DNA of 32,000 nucleotides from Prochlorococcus marinus subsp. pastoris str. CCMP1986 (GCF_000011465.1 NC_005072.1:1320001-1352000), one strand, 5' to 3'. Counted from the first letter of the stretch, positions 14,588 through 31,803 are shown. A program made the numbers and translations. The notes: a model not told the origin generated them from the sequence alone.

Positions 14588-14612
14588 TATTAATATAAAT
14601 TACTTTAAAAAA

Positions 14613-14720
14613 ATGACTCCTGAAGCAGAACGTTTTAATGGTTGGGCAGCAATGTTAGGTTTCGTAGCAGCTGTAGGTGCTTACGTAACAACAGGTCAAA
14701 TCATCCCTGGTTGGTTCTAA
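14613..14720 (+). CDS. hli: high-light-inducible protein (single-helix CAB/HLIP), 35 aa
   Basis: MTPEAERFNGWAAMLGFVAAVGAYVTTGQIIPGWF. CAB helix signature E..NG..AM.GF plus a TTGQIIPG tail. Its stop overlaps the next start (TAATG). Confidence 0.9.
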   Translation: MTPEAERFNGWAAMLGFVAAVGAYVTTGQIIPGWF

Positions 14721-14860
14721 TGAAGAACAACGAACCAAAATTAGTTGAAAAAGAAAAAATTGTAGCCGAAAAACTTAATGGTAGGTTTGCCATGATGGGA
14801 TTCGTTGCATTAGTAGGAGCTTATCTAACCACAGGTCAAATTATTCCTGGATTTATCTAA
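14720..14860 (+). CDS. hli: high-light-inducible protein, 46 aa
   Basis: MKNNEPKLVEKEKIVAEKLNGRFAMMGFVALVGAYLTTGQIIPGFI. The ATG at the TAATG junction is preferred over the ORF-track start 14642, which would overlap the upstream hli. Confidence 0.9.
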   Translation: MKNNEPKLVEKEKIVAEKLNGRFAMMGFVALVGAYLTTGQIIPGFI

Positions 14861-16434: not shown

Positions 16435-16541
16435 AAGCATTTAGGAAGTGCTTAGCTGGTTAAGCTCAGTCAATCTGAATTTAACTTTATCGTCATGAGA
16501 GTTTGCTAGTAGGGATGCGAGCAAGCTCTTTTTAATTTTTT
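16435..16541 (+). ncRNA. candidate small RNA (~105 nt) ending in hairpin-family copy T1
   Basis: TATAAT box at 16423-16428. There is no ORF longer than 4 codons. Internal hairpins are AAGCA-loop-TGCTT and GCTTAG-CTGG-TTAAGC. The 3' end reads ATCGTCATGAG + AGAGTTTGCT-AGTAGGGATGCG-AGCAAGCTCT + TTTTAATTTTTT. Confidence 0.35.
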
Positions 16542-21056: not shown

Positions 21057-21185
21057 TTAGAAAATACCTGGAACAATTTGACCAGTAAAGTAGTAAGCCC
21101 CAATAAGAGCAAACATACCTAGCATTGCTGCTTTACCGTTAAACTTTTCAGCTTTTTCGGTCATAAATTTCTTAACAAATTCCAT
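21057..21185 (-). CDS. hli: high-light-inducible protein, 42 aa
   Basis: MEFVKKFMTEKAEKFNGKAAMLGMFALIGAYYFTGQIVPGIF. An alternative start is the internal MTEK. A TATATT -10 box lies at 21208-21213 (minus). Confidence 0.85.
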   Translation of the reverse strand: MEFVKKFMTEKAEKFNGKAAMLGMFALIGAYYFTGQIVPGIF

Positions 21186-23665: not shown

Positions 23666-23791
23666 CTATTTTTCGGAATTACTTAATGCTTTTTCAAATG
23701 TAGAAAATAATGTATATAAACTATTTAATGCGATCAACCAAATCACTAATGACATTCCATGTTGAGTTAATTGAATTGTTCTTTGAGTCAT
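23666..23791 (-). CDS. micro-protein (41 aa) downstream of leader element M
   Basis: MTQRTIQLTQHGMSLVIWLIALNSLYTLFSTFEKALSNSEK. AAGGA Shine-Dalgarno 10 nt upstream; the start is 19 nt after the element. Confidence 0.45.
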   Translation of the reverse strand: MTQRTIQLTQHGMSLVIWLIALNSLYTLFSTFEKALSNSEK

Positions 23792-23810: not shown

Positions 23811-23937
23811 TATGGTTGACTTCAGCTGCATTCCTACAACTGTCTCATGACAACCATATTTTAATTTTAGGCAAGCTATTCAACCTTATAAGTAGATATA
23901 CTTACCTCTTTCCGTACCTTGTCGTTCCTTAAACCGT
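23811..23937 (-). ncRNA. structured leader element, copy M (126 nt core)
   Basis: On the minus strand: 32-nt box CGGTTTAAGGAACGACAAGGTACGGAAAGAGG, a 47-nt variable segment, then the 47-nt nested hairpin ATGGTTG-TCATGAGA-CAGTTG-TAGGAATG-CAGCTG-AAGT-CAACCAT. It is colinear with copy P without indels. Confidence 0.5.
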
Positions 23938-24027
23938 ACATCATGACGTTCATGAATGAGATAAATAATCATCATCACTTGGTCTAACAAGGTCATTTTT
24001 TAGTGCAAGGAGTAACTTATTCTCTAA

Positions 24028-24420
24028 CTATTTTGTCTTAGAAAGTAATAAAAGCCAACCACAGATTAAGGCAAAAGCCATTATCGAAGAAAAAATATTA
24101 TTCCATTGAGCAGTATCTGTTAAATATCTTTCTATCCAAAAAGGGATAAATAACACAACAAAATACCAATAAATTAGAGAAAGAATTCCAAACAACAAAG
24201 CTAAAAGAATATAAAAAGGTAATATACAAAAAAATCTTTTTCTTTCAATTTTTGAATATTGTCCTATTCCTATTTTTCCCCAATAACCTCCATTTAATTG
24301 AAGAAAAAACTTTAAGAATACTCCGTAAGTTGTTATAAAAAACTTAGCGAATCCCAGCAATGGTTTAAAAATTACCTTTATTAAATGCGAGAATAATTTC
24401 ACAAGTATTTTTATTTGCAT
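24028..24420 (-). CDS. polytopic membrane protein, unknown function (130 aa)
   Basis: ORF-track ORF with three or four hydrophobic spans. Confidence 0.6.
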   Translation of the reverse strand: MQIKILVKLFSHLIKVIFKPLLGFAKFFITTYGVFLKFFLQLNGGYWGKIGIGQYSKIERKRFFCILPFYILLALLFGILSLIYWYFVVLFIPFWIERYLTDTAQWNNIFSSIMAFALICGWLLLLSKTK

Positions 24421-24512
24421 AAATTAATGATACTACCAAAAATTTTTCTTATGTGAAAATAAAAATTGAATCAAGACAATGGTTCTGGCAAAGTGTCTAA
24501 AAATTAAATTAT

Positions 24513-24542
24513 TAAAAAAAACAACTCCCAAGAAGAGAGTTG
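24513..24542 (-). terminator. intrinsic terminator (minus strand)
   Basis: Minus-strand stem CAACTC / GAGTTG with a 9-nt loop, followed by eight T. Confidence 0.55.
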
Positions 24543-24600
24543 AATTTCTAACGTCGGAAGTTAATTTATTTCTTTTTCTCTTTTTTAGAGACTTAACAAT

Positions 24601-24645
24601 ATAAAAGCTTGCTTAATATCCCTATAAGCAAGCTCTCATGACGAT
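24601..24645 (-). terminator. hairpin-family copy T3, immediately after ORF 24661-24840
   Basis: Minus-strand reading ATCGTCATGAG + AGCTTGCTTA-TAGGGATAT-TAAGCAAGCT + TTTAT. Confidence 0.5.
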
Positions 24646-24660
24646 TTAATTTTTAAATAT

Positions 24661-24840
24661 TTATGCTGGCAATCTACAATCAAGTTCTATTGTTCCCTCA
24701 TCCATAAGGCGACCAATTTTTAAAACTAGTGCCATATCTAATCTTGAGAAATCTGATTGGTGATTTGTAATCCAATCTAATTCAGATAAAGTTATTACTC
24801 CAGTAGTATTAACTTTGAGGAAGAGTAATCCTAAATTCAT
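24661..24840 (-). CDS. hypothetical protein (59 aa from the internal ATG)
   Basis: MNLGLLFLKVNTTGVITLSELDWITNHQSDFSRLDMALVLKIGRLMDEGTIELDCRLPA. The longer ORF-track start (24876) would overlap the upstream micro-ORF. Confidence 0.5.
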   Translation of the reverse strand: MNLGLLFLKVNTTGVITLSELDWITNHQSDFSRLDMALVLKIGRLMDEGTIELDCRLPA

Positions 24841-24847
24841 TATGCTA

Positions 24848-24937
24848 TTAATTAGTTGCTTTTTTTCCCTTAGCAATCATCAGTACTGGTACTAAAAGAT
24901 ATGCAAAGAATGAGATTAAGAAAATATCTAAATTCAT
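24848..24937 (-). CDS. single-helix micro-ORF (29 aa) directly after the hli operon
   Basis: MNLDIFLISFFAYLLVPVLMIAKGKKATN. It starts 1 nt after the hli stop. Confidence 0.35.
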   Translation of the reverse strand: MNLDIFLISFFAYLLVPVLMIAKGKKATN

Positions 24938-24938
24938 T

Positions 24939-25067
24939 TTAAAAAATCCCAGGTATGATCCAGCCAAAAAGACCGTAATTAACTACTAATGCAAAAAAGC
25001 CCATCATTGCCATTCTTCCATTAGTTCTTTCTGCATTTTGCCAGTAATTAGGTTTTGAGTTTTCCAT
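24939..25067 (-). CDS. hli: high-light-inducible protein, 42 aa (divergent type)
   Basis: MENSKPNYWQNAERTNGRMAMMGFFALVVNYGLFGWIIPGIF, with the E..NGR.AM.GF signature. Confidence 0.85.
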   Translation of the reverse strand: MENSKPNYWQNAERTNGRMAMMGFFALVVNYGLFGWIIPGIF

Positions 25068-25097
25068 TTTTTTGTTTTAGTTATTTGAAGTTTGTAT

Positions 25098-25358
25098 TTA
25101 AACGAAACCTGGAATGATTTGACCTGTAGTTAGATATGCACCAACTGCAGCTATAAGTCCGATCATTGCAAATCTACCGTTGAGAGTTTCTGCAACAACT
25201 TTTTCCTTCTCGATTGTTTTAGTTTTTGTGTTTGAGTTTGTCATTTGATTTTTGTTTGAGTAGATTAAATTTTCTTCTTGAAATTGTTTAGTTAGGGAAG
25301 CAACGAGTAAAGCAGTTAGAGATACAATTAAAATCAAAAAAACTGCTAGTGGACTCAT
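25098..25358 (-). CDS. hli: high-light-inducible protein with extra N-terminal hydrophobic helix (86 aa)
   Basis: MSPLAVFLILIVSLTALLVASLTKQFQEENLIYSNKNQMTNSNTKTKTIEKEKVVAETLNGRFAMIGLIAAVGAYLTTGQIIPGFV. The start is taken at the TAATG junction; the internal MTNSN start (48 aa) is the alternative. Confidence 0.8.
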   Translation of the reverse strand: MSPLAVFLILIVSLTALLVASLTKQFQEENLIYSNKNQMTNSNTKTKTIEKEKVVAETLNGRFAMIGLIAAVGAYLTTGQIIPGFV

Positions 25359-25567
25359 TAAAAAATACCTGGAATGATTTGACCTGTTGTTACGTATGCA
25401 CCTAATAATGCTACGAAGCCAATCATTGCCCAACGACCGTTAACTTTTTCTGCGTTTTGAGGATAGCCGTCATAAGAAACTGACTCATCTATGTAAGGAC
25501 GAGTTTCTGATGGAAACATGTTTTGTCTTCCGCCAGACTCAGTTGTTGTGTATGAAGAATTTGACAT
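25358..25567 (-). CDS. hli: high-light-inducible protein, 69 aa
   Basis: ...QNAEKVNGRWAMIGFVALLGAYVTTGQIIPGIF. TAATG overlaps at both ends. Confidence 0.9.
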   Translation of the reverse strand: MSNSSYTTTESGGRQNMFPSETRPYIDESVSYDGYPQNAEKVNGRWAMIGFVALLGAYVTTGQIIPGIF

Positions 25568-25674
25568 TAGAAAAAACCAGGAATTATTTGACCAGTTGTT
25601 ACGTATGCGCCAACAGCTGCTACGAAACCAAGCATTGCTGCTAAGCCGTTAAATCTTTCTGCGTCAGGTGTCAT
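25567..25674 (-). CDS. hli: high-light-inducible protein, 35 aa
   Basis: MTPDAERFNGLAAMLGFVAAVGAYVTTGQIIPGFF. Near-identical to the product of 14613-14720. Confidence 0.9.
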   Translation of the reverse strand: MTPDAERFNGLAAMLGFVAAVGAYVTTGQIIPGFF

Positions 25675-25698
25675 AATTAAAATTTGATTATGTAAACA

Positions 25699-25727
25699 AA
25701 TATAACACAACTATTAATGAATGTAAA
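25699..25727 (-). promoter_or_regulatory. promoter of the 4-gene hli operon (-35 TTTACA, 17 nt, -10 TATATT)
   Basis: On the minus strand, TTTACA at 25727-25722 and TATATT at 25704-25699, with the core GTGTTATATTTGTTTAC shared with the other hli promoters. Confidence 0.55.
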
Positions 25728-25850
25728 GATATTGGCCTCTATTAGTGCTTAAATAGTATTTTCTATACATTTTTGATACATTAATGTATAAAAGTCATTA
25801 AACTTATCTATTTATTGTTAACAAGTAAGATTTTGAAAGGTAAAAAAATA

Positions 25851-25961
25851 ATGTCAATTTCATACTACAGAGAGCAAAGAATAATGCTTTTAGGAGGACA
25901 AAATATTGTTCTGGCCAGTGAAAATCAAGAGGAAATTGAACCTATCTGGGCGAAAAAATAA
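25851..25961 (+). CDS. micro-ORF (36 aa)
   Basis: MSISYYREQRIMLLGGQNIVLASENQEEIEPIWAKK. Confidence 0.3.
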   Translation: MSISYYREQRIMLLGGQNIVLASENQEEIEPIWAKK

Positions 25962-25980
25962 ATGATAAATATTCAAAAAA

Positions 25981-26022
25981 ATGAAACGCTTACTACTTAC
26001 ACCGCTAATAGTTACGAATTGA
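25981..26022 (+). pseudogene. truncated MKRLLL signal-peptide gene start (13 codons)
   Basis: ATGAAACGCTTACTAC... encodes MKRLLLTPLIVTN then stops. The downstream -1 frame (LTAESHYGESLIPVKFTT) is colinear with the region upstream of and into ORF 27474-27623. Confidence 0.35.
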
Positions 26023-26107
26023 CAGCCGAATCCCATTACGGTGAATCGTTGATTCCAGTAAAATTTACTACTTAGGAAACTAAGAGATAATTGATTAGTC
26101 TTTTTTA

Positions 26108-26626
26108 TCAGGTTAGTGATTTGATTTCTCGTTCTATCGGATTAAACCCAACTTTCTTAATTTGATCATTTTCCCAAACCCAATAAACAGGTGGAGTTTT
26201 TCTTGCCTTTATTAAACTTATTTGGTCTAATTTTTGTGGGATAAATTCTTTAGCTGGATCAAAAAATTTATCTCTTGTGGGTTGATTTAAGACAATACTA
26301 CCTTCTTTTCCTGAAATTGATCTGTGATAAGTTCCAATAGGAATTTCTAATGCCCCCATAGATCTATTTAAATAAATTACATGATGGGGTTCATCCCATG
26401 CAGGATTTATTAGAACAAATGTTCTTTCCCCAGCAATAACTAAGTTGTGATCACTTTGATGATTGTGAACGTAATATTGTTCATCTTTAAAATCATCTGG
26501 AGGAGATATAGCCTCTTCAGAGTGAATTACCACATCGCAACCATTAGATGCCTCCAAGCCTGCATCAAAGAATGTCACTTTTGGAGTCTCTCTAAAAATT
26601 GTTGTTGGGAAGAATCTTAATTTCAT
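26108..26626 (-). CDS. cupin-like protein, unknown function (172 aa)
   Basis: YVHNHQSDHNLVIAGERTFVL and IPIGTYHRS resemble the two cupin motifs. Fold-level inference only. Confidence 0.6.
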   Translation of the reverse strand: MKLRFFPTTIFRETPKVTFFDAGLEASNGCDVVIHSEEAISPPDDFKDEQYYVHNHQSDHNLVIAGERTFVLINPAWDEPHHVIYLNRSMGALEIPIGTYHRSISGKEGSIVLNQPTRDKFFDPAKEFIPQKLDQISLIKARKTPPVYWVWENDQIKKVGFNPIEREIKSLT

Positions 26627-26700
26627 TGTTCAACTTCTCATTAATAAATTTATAAATATTTTTAGGATTTATAAGCTATAAAATAACGATTAATTTATAG

Positions 26701-26847
26701 TCAGTTGCAACAAACTAAACAATCTTCTTTTGTTGGATAATCCATACATTCTTTCTTTAAAGTTTCTTCTAAAACTTTTACTTTGTTGACATAGTCAAGA
26801 TCTCTAAACTCTTTTTTTGGAACGGTGAATTGAGTTTGTAGTTTCAT
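26701..26847 (-). CDS. small protein with C-terminal EC..YP.K..CL..C motif (48 aa), paralog of 15506-15655
   Basis: MKLQTQFTVPKKEFRDLDYVNKVKVLEETLKKECMDYPTKEDCLVCCN. GGAGG Shine-Dalgarno 6 nt upstream. Confidence 0.55.
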   Translation of the reverse strand: MKLQTQFTVPKKEFRDLDYVNKVKVLEETLKKECMDYPTKEDCLVCCN

Positions 26848-26875
26848 TTAGACCTCCTAGATCCATATCTATATT
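26847..26875 (+). promoter_or_regulatory. putative promoter of leader element P (-35 TTTAGA, 17 nt, -10 TATATT)
   Basis: TTTAGA at 26847-26852 and TATATT at 26870-26875. This would give a ~250-nt 5' leader before ATG 27131. Confidence 0.4.
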
Positions 26876-26904
26876 GTCCTACTATTGCCCTGTAATTTAT
26901 AGGG

Positions 26905-27030
26905 CGGTTTGAGGAACAATTAGGTACGGAAAGAGGACCGAATTATGAGACTGTTATTTAATTGTCATTCCTAGGATTAAAACATGGTTGTCATGAGGCA
27001 GTTGCAGGGATACAACTGAAGCCAACCATA
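26905..27030 (+). ncRNA. structured leader element, copy P (126 nt)
   Basis: Box CGGTTTGAGGAACAATTAGGTACGGAAAGAGG, a 47-nt variable segment, then the nested hairpin ATGGTTG-TCATGAGG-CAGTTG-CAGGGATA-CAACTG-AAGC-CAACCAT. The inner stem differs from copy M by G to A opposite U, so pairing is preserved. Confidence 0.5.
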
Positions 27031-27130
27031 AATTATTTGAGATAAAATCGAGAGAGAGATATCACTCATCAATCAGTAAATATATGATTGACAGTCGATC
27101 TAAAATAAGGGGCAATTAGTTTTTTTGTTT

Positions 27131-27412
27131 ATGTCAATTGAAACAACTGTTTTAGATTTCAAATTAAGCAACACTTTTGAGGAATATCAGGCTCACATGA
27201 ATGCTCCTGAACAACAAGCCATGTTTAAAGAGATGGGAGTAAAAACCTTTTATATTGGTAAATCATTAGAAGACCCTAAAAGAGCAACCGTTATGTTTCA
27301 AGGACCAGTAAATACTTGTTACGACATCTTTGTTAACCCAGAAACAAAACCAATAGTTGAAGCCTCAGGTCATATTTATGAAGGGACAATAATTAATCGC
27401 TGGATTTCTTAA
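27131..27412 (+). CDS. conserved hypothetical protein (93 aa; TTG 27125 is an alternative start)
   Basis: MSIETTVLDFKLSNTFEEYQAHMNAPEQQAMFKEMGVKTFYIGKSLEDPKRATVMFQGPVNTCYDIFVNPETKPIVEASGHIYEGTIINRWIS. A paralogous pseudogene lies at 18524-18808. Confidence 0.7.
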   Translation: MSIETTVLDFKLSNTFEEYQAHMNAPEQQAMFKEMGVKTFYIGKSLEDPKRATVMFQGPVNTCYDIFVNPETKPIVEASGHIYEGTIINRWIS

Positions 27413-27473
27413 TAATTTTGAAACGCTTACTACGTGCACCACTTTATTATTGACAGATAGCTATAAAGTATTA

Positions 27474-28592: not shown

Positions 28593-28688
28593 TTAGATTA
28601 AAACGAGGATTATTAGCAGTAACATAAGCACGTTTAATGCAACTCCTATCCGAAATAAAGTCCTATTATCTTCACCCTCATCACTCAT
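28593..28688 (-). CDS. single-helix micro-ORF (31 aa)
   Basis: MSDEGEDNRTLFRIGVALNVLMLLLIILVLI. It overlaps the upstream ORF by 8 nt. Confidence 0.35.
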   Translation of the reverse strand: MSDEGEDNRTLFRIGVALNVLMLLLIILVLI

Positions 28689-28830
28689 TTAAGCTATCCA
28701 TAAAGTGTTGTCTTCTGATCTTTTCAATCTCTTTAATCTTTTCCTGTAGCCATAAAATATTTTCTGATCTTTTTTTAAAATAAGAAATCTTAGGTTGATT
28801 GATTTCTAATGTTTCATAATCTCCACTCAT
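28681..28830 (-). CDS. micro-ORF (49 aa), helical
   Basis: MSGDYETLEINQPKISYFKKRSENILWLQEKIKEIEKIRRQHFMDSLNE. Confidence 0.4.
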   Translation of the reverse strand: MSGDYETLEINQPKISYFKKRSENILWLQEKIKEIEKIRRQHFMDSLNE

Positions 28831-29116
28831 AAATTCCCCCAAATTTATATTTCATTAAAACTCTAATTAGTGTATTTATTATTTTTACTAAGGAGAAAAT
28901 AAGAAAGAATTAATTTATGGTTAAAAAGAATCAACTGATCGCGAGAGAGGGAAATAAAAATATTTTCGAGAGGATTATAAACTTAAATTTTATTTTTCTT
29001 ATTCGTATCTTATTTAATTCTTAAAGAAGAGTTCAGTAAATCTTTTAAACTGAAATTAGATTCTATATTCGCCTCACACGAAAGATAGAAGCTTTCTCTT
29101 TTTGAAATAATTTGGT

Positions 29117-29756: not shown

Positions 29757-29909
29757 TAAGATTATTTAATTACTTCTATTTGTGCCTTATTAAATTTAAA
29801 AATAATTTAAGAAAAGTTTATCATTAACAATAAAATTTAAAGCGCTTACTAGTTGAACCGTTTTCTTATTGGCAGATGGTAAATAATTATTAGACCGAAA
29901 ACATAAAAT

Positions 29910-30040: not shown

Positions 30041-30088
30041 ATTAAAAAGTGCTTGCCAGTATCACTATTGGCAAACACTCATGACGAT
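30041..30088 (-). terminator. hairpin-family copy T4
   Basis: Minus-strand reading ATCGTCATGA + GTGTTTGCCA-ATAGTGATAC-TGGCAAGCAC + TTTTTAAT. Confidence 0.5.
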
Positions 30089-30101
30089 GTTTTTTGAAAA
30101 T

Positions 30102-30212
30102 CTAAACGAACATTTCTGTTGATGTAGTGATACTTAAAATTACAGAAATAAAGAAAATGTAAGGAACTACCTTAAAAGGAACATATCCTCGGCGTTTAGA
30201 AATAAAGTCCAT
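30102..30212 (-). CDS. single-helix micro-ORF (36 aa) abutting the hli stop
   Basis: MDFISKRRGYVPFKVVPYIFFISVILSITTSTEMFV. Its ATG follows the hli TAA with no gap. Confidence 0.4.
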   Translation of the reverse strand: MDFISKRRGYVPFKVVPYIFFISVILSITTSTEMFV

Positions 30213-30368
30213 TTAGACGAATCCAGGAATAATTTGACCTGTTGTTAAATAAGCACCAATAGCAGCTATGAAGCCAATCATGGCAAATCTGCCGTTGAGC
30301 TTTTCTGCAACAACTTTTTCCTTCTCAACTGTTTTTGTTTCGAGAACTTTAACTTTTTTTGAGTTCAT
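30213..30368 (-). CDS. hli: high-light-inducible protein, 51 aa
   Basis: MNSKKVKVLETKTVEKEKVVAEKLNGRFAMIGFIAAIGAYLTTGQIIPGFV. Confidence 0.9.
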   Translation of the reverse strand: MNSKKVKVLETKTVEKEKVVAEKLNGRFAMIGFIAAIGAYLTTGQIIPGFV

Positions 30369-31143: not shown

Positions 31144-31515
31144 TTAAAATTTAAGTTTTGTTTTTACTCTATTTTTATTTTCAGAATTAAATTTAAAAAG
31201 TCCCGAGTCAGTAAATATAGTCAATTCATCGCCATATGATTCCTGGATAGATAAACCTTCATCAGAATCTAAATTTTTAACAAATACATTTCCGACTAGT
31301 TTTAAAGTTCTCGCATCTTTGTCGTAAGTAAGCTTATTTGAGGAGGCTTCAAAATTATTCTTATTACTTTTGATAACTACATTTCCAATAGCTTCAAAAC
31401 TCCCTTTTACGTTTTGTATCTGAGAATCAGAGGTAACTGTATAATTCAGCTTCTCTTTTGCAAATGAAATTTCAGTTAAAAGTAATAGTAGCGGGGCAAA
31501 TAGTAAGCGTTTCAT
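31144..31515 (-). CDS. OstA/LptA-like periplasmic protein
   Basis: Signal peptide MKRLLFAPLLLLLTEISFA, then repeated beta-jellyroll strands GNVVIKS...LTYDKDARTLKLVGNVFV, as in LptA/OstA N-terminal domains. Confidence 0.7.
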   Translation of the reverse strand: MKRLLFAPLLLLLTEISFAKEKLNYTVTSDSQIQNVKGSFEAIGNVVIKSNKNNFEASSNKLTYDKDARTLKLVGNVFVKNLDSDEGLSIQESYGDELTIFTDSGLFKFNSENKNRVKTKLKF

Positions 31516-31803
31516 TTATGGATCAAGCTTCGTTGTTAGTTGGCAAAAAGTAGCATTATTATTTTTGAGACATTTATTGTATTTTGTCTGTAAAACTTTT
31601 TGTGCTTCTTTCTTTATGCAAAGATCCAAGTAATTTTTTGCAAATTGAGTCATCCCAATTTCGTTATATTCTGCATATTTCAAACCTGGTCTTTTGCATT
31701 GAGAGACTATTTGTTTGTAAGTAGGTTCTTTATGAAAAAGATTTGCTTTAACAGCAGTAGGTAAAGCGACAACAGCTAAAAGTGGGAGTAGTAAGCGTTT
31801 CAT
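31516..31803 (-). CDS. secreted Cys-containing hypothetical protein (95 aa)
   Basis: Signal peptide MKRLLLPLLAVVALPTAVKA and four Cys. Its stop abuts the start of 31144-31515. Confidence 0.55.
   Translation of the reverse strand: MKRLLLPLLAVVALPTAVKANLFHKEPTYKQIVSQCKRPGLKYAEYNEIGMTQFAKNYLDLCIKKEAQKVLQTKYNKCLKNNNATFCQLTTKLDP

Follow-up and report, generated by a model that had tools for sequence, protein, structure and literature searches.

We analyzed a 32,000-nucleotide stretch of the Prochlorococcus marinus subsp. pastoris str. CCMP1986 (MED4) genome (GCF_000011465.1 NC_005072.1:1320001-1352000; BX548174 1,320,001-1,352,000), hereafter the window, with a focus on two related non-coding elements in genomic island 5, copy M on the minus strand and copy P on the plus strand. 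The two are probably (at a probability of roughly 0.7) copies of a ~130-bp promoter-plus-leader cassette that has spread through the flexible genome of high-light Prochlorococcus. Only the last 46 of the 126 bases are transcribed as RNA; the first 80 are promoter DNA. An initial annotation, made from the sequence alone, had proposed a 126-nt transcribed, riboswitch-like leader; its hairpin is indeed transcribed, whereas its box and middle segment lie upstream of the mapped starts. Since the first 80 bases are promoter DNA and the last 46 alone are RNA, the element is not a riboswitch; what holds is the broader idea of a conserved non-coding regulatory element ahead of short open reading frames (ORFs).

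Structure and transcription of copies M and P

M and P align end to end without indels over 126 bases each, with 76% identity across the whole element (blastn, E=3e-18), and a repeat finder returned the pair as two sets of inverted colinear arms, 61 nt at 85% (23811-23871 / 26970-27030) and 32 nt at 88% (23905-23936 / 26905-26936). The colinear, indel-free relationship given by the initial annotation was thus borne out, as were its three-part layout (a 32-nt box, a diverged middle with a conserved tail, and a nested hairpin), the hairpin stems ATGGTTG/CAACCAT (outer) and CAGTTG/CARCTG (inner), and the lone inner-stem difference, U-G vs U-A. No copy beyond M and P was found in the 32-kb window by a covariance model of the hairpin and a hidden Markov model (HMM) of the box. 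The features of the two copies are as follows (window coordinates unless marked MED4).

23937-23811, minus strand: copy M, MED4 complement(1343811..1343937)
26905-27030, plus strand: copy P, MED4 1346905..1347030
23905..23936, minus strand: M box CGGTTTAAGGAACGACAAGGTACGGAAAGAGG, at -79 to -48, containing CGGTTTAAGGAAC and CGGAAAGAGGTAA as direct repeats at a 22-bp spacing
26905..26936, plus strand: P box CGGTTTGAGGAACAATTAGGTACGGAAAGAGG, spanning -79 to -48 relative to the plus-strand start; relative to the divergent start 26865(-) it spans about -40 to -71
23870..23904, minus strand: M spacer between box and -10 box, sequence differing between sub-types, length fixed
23864..23869, minus strand: M -10 box TAAAAT, at -12 to -7, 6 nt before the corrected +1
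26972..26977, plus strand: P -10 box TAGGAT, at -12 to -7, 6 nt before the corrected +1
23856, minus strand: M start as called, MED4 1343856(-), reads 4699/1921/2847/3349 in the four libraries
26985, plus strand: P start as called, MED4 1346985(+), reads 2513/271/1282/1898
23812..23857, minus strand: M hairpin, 46 nt, AUGGUUG-UCAUGAGA-CAGUUG-UAGGAAUG-CAGCUG-AAGU-CAACCAU
26984..27029, plus strand: P hairpin, 46 nt, covariance model match 73.7 bits, with a fold and a read contig

Start sites were TSSAR calls on MED4 differential RNA sequencing (dRNA-seq) in four libraries (Read et al. 2017, PMC5607370, Supplementary Tables 8-11). In all four, the calls for both M and P fell on the second outer-stem base, the U in AUGGUUG. 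The start of the RNA Yfr20 is placed at 1336436 by TSSAR vs 1336435 by 5' rapid amplification of cDNA ends, and because this calibration reveals a downstream shift of 1 nt, the true +1 is probably the A of AUGGUUG (23857(-) for M and 26984(+) for P), the first base of the hairpin. Across the same libraries, no start was called at or immediately upstream of either purine-rich box, nor on the plus strand between MED4 1343374 and 1346985. Transcript maps, which the initial annotation had named as evidence able to overturn a leader, thereby place 80 of the 126 nt outside the RNA. The TTTAGA-17-TATATT promoter that it had proposed at 26847-26875 matches the consensus but has no mapped plus-strand start, and a strong minus-strand start, 26865, falls within this match.

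Red Sea dRNA-seq read contigs have been placed on MED4 at 1343811-1343858(-) and 1346983-1347032(+) (Lott et al. 2020, PMC7368042, Table S3), and these span the two hairpins only. In the same table, RNAz P is 0.993 for the M contig and 0.997 for the P contig, and no Rfam model or annotation is assigned; homologues of the P contig are listed only in high-light clades I and II (HLI and HLII), and the M contig is absent from that list (PMC7368042, Table S4). Both hairpins were therefore already on record, unnamed, as small RNA (sRNA) candidates (PMC7368042).

Relatives, promoter elements and the 5' hairpin

Relatives were collected by scanning species-representative genomes with the pattern TTTNAGGAACNNNNAGGTACGG; diverged members (sub-types E and F, and locus L072) were recovered with the covariance model of the hairpin and the HMM of the box. 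The scan gave at least 120 loci, and among the matches listed ~100 came from high-light Prochlorococcus isolates or single-cell genomes, the others being chance matches in G+C-rich taxa. Homologues beyond the pair, whose absence the initial annotation had named as refuting its proposal, thus exist, and they fall into the following sub-types.

A: the commonest, in HLII; followed after 23 nt by a 60-codon ORF, then by a 43-49-codon homologue of the 41-codon ORF downstream of M
B and P: beside a divergently transcribed 48-60-codon ORF, with various genes downstream
C: M-like, with the 41-codon ORF directly after
D: hairpin-less, keeping the box and, at an unchanged offset, TAGTTT; downstream either a 75-codon ORF or a nuclease-like gene
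E: loci L096 and L059, inner stem replaced by unrelated sequence
F: loci L080, L082 and L034, box without hairpin
L072: a further diverged member, retaining the -10 box at the same offset

The same cassette therefore stands before non-homologous small genes, and the box occurs ahead of at least six unrelated downstream contexts. A blastn search of 50,697 phage records for a phage origin gave no match; in IMG/VR, four specific patterns returned nothing or chance matches at G+C 0.46-0.50, and a bare 14-mer returned 120 chance matches, none with the full hairpin. As a separate observation, MED4 and several HLII genomes (those of L012, L065 and L125) each contain an A/C-type and a B/P-type cassette that face outward at a distance of ~3-3.5 kb, and the content between the outward-facing pair is an hli cluster in MED4 vs unrelated small ORFs in L012.

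The -10 hexamer read TAnnnT in 79 of 80 distinct copies, with an information content of 2.0, 2.0 and 1.9 bits at T, A and T vs 0.8-1.5 bits at the inner positions. "CCTAnnnT" is invariant ahead of the hairpin and corresponds to the conserved tail of the middle segment; because +1 sits at the hairpin base, this tail is the -10 box. The hexamer keeps its offset in sub-types D and E and in L072. If a sigma-70-type -10 box is defined as a TAnnnT whose last base lies 5-8 nt ahead of a mapped primary 5' terminus, both M and P have one. Upstream of it, the spacer was 35-36 bp in sub-types with unrelated sequences; a T run that differs by 1 nt was the only indel, and in sub-type E the spacer is shorter by 1 nt.

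The purine-rich box holds two direct copies of the unit CGGWWWGAGGWAY spaced 22 bp, read as CGGTTTGAGGAAC and CGGAAAGAGGTAT, with AGGTAC in between, so that AGGWAY cores recur about every 11 bp. It was conserved in all sub-types, with a total repeat length of 32-38 bp, and is still carried by the hairpin-less sub-types D and F. Its AAGGAAC and ACGGAAAGAGG motifs lie at -79 to -48 and therefore upstream of the start, since the starts map at the hairpin. The box displays sequence marks of a factor-binding site (repeat symmetry, fixed phasing to the -10 box, and recurrence before several genes), and on these sequence features it is probably the binding site of a DNA-binding regulator. In sub-types B, P and D the box lies ~40-71 bp from a strong divergent start, and may additionally serve this divergent promoter. 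Taken together, the -10 signature, fixed spacing, repeats and divergent-start distance argue for promoter DNA with a phased regulator site. As to other identities of the box, none of the NtcA (GTA-N8-TAC), LexA, HLR1/RpaB, Pho box or CIRCE operators fits by consensus; a protein-coding role was rejected, as the frame has a stop and, in P, no start codon, and the M/P differences are non-synonymous. A search of literature full text for the element sequences found nothing relevant.

The hairpin is supported as RNA on the annotated strand. The M hairpin folds at -15.1 kcal/mol (z -3.0) and matches the covariance model at 65.9 bits, and across the copies 88% of pair cells are standard vs 16-46% with the partners slid. 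G-U pairs are many, one pair runs from C-G over U-G to U-A, and the inner stem of sub-type E is of unrelated sequence and still folds. The stem begins at +1, leaving no single-stranded 5' tail; the internal loop carries GUCAUGAG and the apical loop AGGRAU, a pair of motifs common to Yfr20. No K-turn, sarcin-ricin, hammerhead or tetraloop-receptor consensus fitted the internal loop (by eye). The M transcript also opens with an AUG at +1 that would give a possible leaderless mini-ORF, MVVMRQL* (23857-23834(-)); in P and in sub-types A and B the same AUG gives MVVM....N* in 11 codons (P 26984-27019(+)). This mini-ORF was rejected because its length is not conserved, ranging from 5 to >11 codons, and the AUG is lost in two copies.

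Interpretation and alternative readings

In the promoter-plus-leader cassette as we picture it, a regulator would bind the 32-nt direct-repeat box at -79 to -48, and the spacer, conserved in length and variable in sequence, would hold this box at a fixed distance from the -10 box. The RNA would start with a flush 5'-terminal stem-loop, most likely shielding a short mRNA from 5'-end-dependent decay; in M, the hairpin would head the mRNA of the 41-codon ORF. The hairpin may also bear a recognition motif common to Yfr20 (the GUCAUGAG internal loop and the AGGRAU apical loop), through which one factor would recognize both RNAs.

Several observations weigh against this interpretation. A TTGACA-like -35 element 16-18 bp upstream of the -10 box is not conserved in the spacer; -35 elements are commonly absent from Prochlorococcus promoters. 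No protein is known to bind the box, and no regulator motif that matches it was found. A minor transcript that includes the M box would arise from the weak start at 24022-24024 on the minus strand (152-426 reads). Terminator exonuclease may fail to digest an RNA whose 5' end is buried in a stem, so that a processed end could be miscalled as a primary start, and the 3' ends of the Red Sea contigs may merely mark where environmental HLII reads cease to match MED4. The hairpin sequences are closely related and covariation among them is accordingly modest, and the inner stems are degraded in some M-like copies. Finally, a simple stabilizer role explains neither the conserved CC before the -10 box nor the internal loop (UCAUGAG / GAAR), which is more conserved than the stems.

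The last point marks the difference from known stabilizers. Stem-loops at the 5' terminus stabilize bacterial mRNAs, as in Escherichia coli ompA, and need no conserved loop sequence. M and P resemble ompA-type elements in having a stem within one base of +1, no 5' tail, short mRNAs and a host whose RNA half-lives are very short, but differ in that strongly conserved internal loop. Matus-Garcia et al. in 2012 reportedly described putative mobile promoters ("promoter propagation in prokaryotes"), and the cassette is similar in placing the same promoter plus leader before non-homologous genes within and between genomes; M and P, however, are old and diverged (76%), with only the functional blocks conserved, and are not near-identical recent duplicates. 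A close parallel for the box is CGRE1, the activator site of the GntR-family protein PMM1637 upstream of yfr2 in the same organism (Lambrecht et al. 2018, PMC6191309), which likewise is a conserved motif of ~20-30 bp at a fixed upstream position of a -10-only promoter. CGRE1 starts at -55 to -57, precedes several paralogous small-RNA genes and is bound by PMM1637 (PMC6191309). It is a 22-nt palindrome with a known binder, whereas the present box is a 32-38-bp direct repeat farther upstream (-79 to -48), has a putative factor and also drives small protein genes.

Yfr20 (RF02367), an sRNA induced by high light, lies in the same island and has, like M and P, GUCAUGAG ahead of a stem whose loop is AGGRAU; its model aligns weakly to P. 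In Yfr20, however, this motif belongs to the 3' terminator hairpin and comes 58 nt downstream of the start, whereas in M and P an additional outer stem encloses it at the extreme 5' end. Two Yfr20-like sequences occur in addition at 24606-24672(-) and 30041-30101(-), both sub-threshold in Rfam (26 bits for the first). Both consist of UCGUCAUGAG followed by a terminator hairpin and lie downstream of an hli cluster, the first of them between M and P.

This similarity raises the alternative, which we consider unlikely, that the hairpin is more than an mRNA 5' end: a stand-alone, trans-acting sRNA of ~47-49 nt, expressed from the cassette promoter and related to Yfr20 but shorter. The environmental contigs, 47 and 49 nt long, end at the hairpin foot and both have RNAz P >0.99, but, as noted, these ends may reflect the loss of HLII read matches. 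The pattern GTCATGAG-N5-16-AGGRAT occurred 4 times in the window (Yfr20, the Yfr20-like sequence at 24618-24642(-), M and P) vs 0 in 100 shuffles; sub-type A loops, however, are without AGGRAU, which speaks against kinship. The Yfr20 covariance model aligned to P at 11.7 bits (E-value 7.3), far under the family threshold of 44 bits, and did not match M, whereas genuine Yfr20 at window 16435-16523 (MED4 1336435..1336523; Steglich et al. 2008) scored 106.9 bits. PMM1401, the gene downstream of P, has starts of its own (27056 and 27115), and in sub-type B 268 nt separate the hairpin from the following ORF, both in keeping with an independent RNA. In M and sub-type A, however, the ORF begins 19-23 nt past the hairpin and no other start is mapped, and an intrinsic terminator scan was blank at both hairpins, which are followed by no U run (tails AGUUUUAAGG and AAAUUAUUUG).

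That all 126 nt act in cis as a structured leader, be it a riboswitch or another sensor, and are a relative or a permuted form of the glnA and Downstream-peptide RNAs, appears very improbable. The glutamine-riboswitch consensus runs CGUUC ... ACGGAAGUAGG ... AAGGAACG, with P1 closing the aptamer. AAGGAAC and ACGGAAAGAGG resemble its conserved boxes, and the diverged copy L096 reads CGGGAGTAGG, but AAGGAAC comes before ACGGAAAGAGG here, the reverse of the consensus order, and the 5' CGUUC partner is absent. The element shares with glutamine riboswitches (RF01739, RF01704) the host group, a site before short ORFs and purine-rich words (GGAAC, CGGAAGNAGG-like), and differs from them in box order, in having its boxes upstream of the start, and in matching no model. 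Rfam at gathering score, the check that the initial annotation had proposed with these two families included, gave no family match for either copy; at E<=10, 3.9 kb as well as 151-nt stretches around P, M and L096 gave noise and the weak Yfr20 alignment only, with no glnA RNA or Downstream-peptide match. The full-length M RNA does fold with z -2.3, and the weak 24022-24024(-) start could transcribe the M box, but in all four libraries the major primary 5' ends map past the boxes, and no plus-strand start was called ahead of the P box. Moreover, the consensus fold contains no conserved box pairing, the middle folds differently in each sub-type, the -10 signature and fixed spacing fit DNA and not RNA, and the box survives without the hairpin. 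Long-range pairing of the box with CCUA or the spacer was tried by eye and rejected, being invariant or sub-type-specific and unrecovered by the consensus fold. The riboswitch-like reading accordingly fails on the blank Rfam result and the primary 5' ends at the hairpin; a false lead is thereby removed, and glutamine-aptamer-like purine words can evidently occur in promoter DNA.

Still less probable is the idea of a mobile or invertible 3.2-kb segment containing the hli cluster, with M and P as its terminal inverted repeats. The inverted copies do bracket PMM1395, a Yfr20-like RNA, four hli genes, PMM1400 and small ORFs, and the outward-facing pairs about 3 kb apart recur in the HLII genomes of L012, L065 and L125. 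Between the copies, however, no transposase or recombinase look-alike was seen (the two larger ORFs, PMM1395 and PMM1400, were scanned and are without Pfam match, and the remainder are hli genes and short ORFs), and the flanks, TCCTTAAAAC and AATTATTTGA, are unrelated, with no target-site duplication. L012 carries different cargo between its pair, single copies stand in many other contexts and always face a downstream gene, and M and P are just 76% identical with an unrelated middle.

Under the promoter-plus-leader interpretation, a phased-box cassette before many unrelated small HLI and HLII island genes points to a common regulator, which the box, used as bait, could retrieve directly, and the hairpin ties the cassette transcripts to the Yfr20 family. 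Prochlorococcus has very few regulators, and its genomic islands hold ecotype-distinguishing genes. We tentatively raise the possibility, which we hold to be less probable than not by some way, that small flexible-genome genes of high-light Prochlorococcus form a previously undescribed regulon, marked by the box and read by a putative DNA-binding protein, and that the hairpin, with its GUCAUGAG/AGGRAU motif in common with Yfr20, is the handle of a second, post-transcriptional regulator, the two forming one portable module. If true, island-gene transcription and RNA fate would be controlled together by this module.

Neighbouring genes and further sequence motifs

The transcription units next to the two copies are given below.

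23666..23791, minus strand: 41-codon ORF on the M transcript, encoding a small hydrophobic protein (KGF87007/WP_268741255)
26701..26865, minus strand: divergent unit beside P, with a very strong start at 26865(-), a 48-codon ORF at 26847-26701, then PMM1400
27131..27412, plus strand: PMM1401 (DUF3764), with its own starts at 27056(+) and 27115(+)

As the initial annotation stated, M ends 19 nt ahead of the 41-codon ORF at 23791-23666; the 5' untranslated region of this ORF from the M start is 65-66 nt, so that for M the hairpin does form the 5' end of its leader. Homologues of this ORF come after sub-types A and C. P was likewise correctly placed upstream of the ORF at 27131-27412, here recognized as PMM1401, a DUF3764 protein. 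An identical PMM1401 gene was found elsewhere without P, and because the gene has a proximal promoter and occurs without P, the P product may be a separate short RNA; alternatively, the P hairpin may belong to a long-leader isoform. In sub-types B, P and D, the divergent unit accompanies the box.

The start of that unit, 26865(-), ranks among the strongest of the region and had 78,431 reads in nitrogen-replete cells at 12 h; under nitrogen deprivation it fell to 13,348 at 12 h and was unlisted at 24 h, and the hli start 25690(-) climbed from 5,034 to 57,347 under nitrogen deprivation. Window proteins identical to those of MED4 were PMM1395, the hli gene product PMM1398, PMM1400, PMM1401, CAP16510 and a 41-aa protein.

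A motif, TGAAACGCTTACTAC..CACCGCT, occurs right after the stop codons of small ORFs at 25982-26006, 27419-27443 and 29838-29862 (+) and at 31486-31517 (inverted). In locus L003 (3854-3880) it lies directly upstream of a PMM1401-type promoter (ATTGACAG...TAAAAT); the motif may mark the edge of a cassette or be a further element upstream of promoters. At 28681-28842(-), the window holds the MED4 homologue of a 45-codon ORF (MSGDFETLEINQPK...) that in HLII is transcribed divergently from sub-type A cassettes and here is cassette-free. The longest repeats of the window come from several clusters of hli (high-light-inducible) gene copies, at 14598-14860, 21057-21166, 24939-25710 and 30211-30342.

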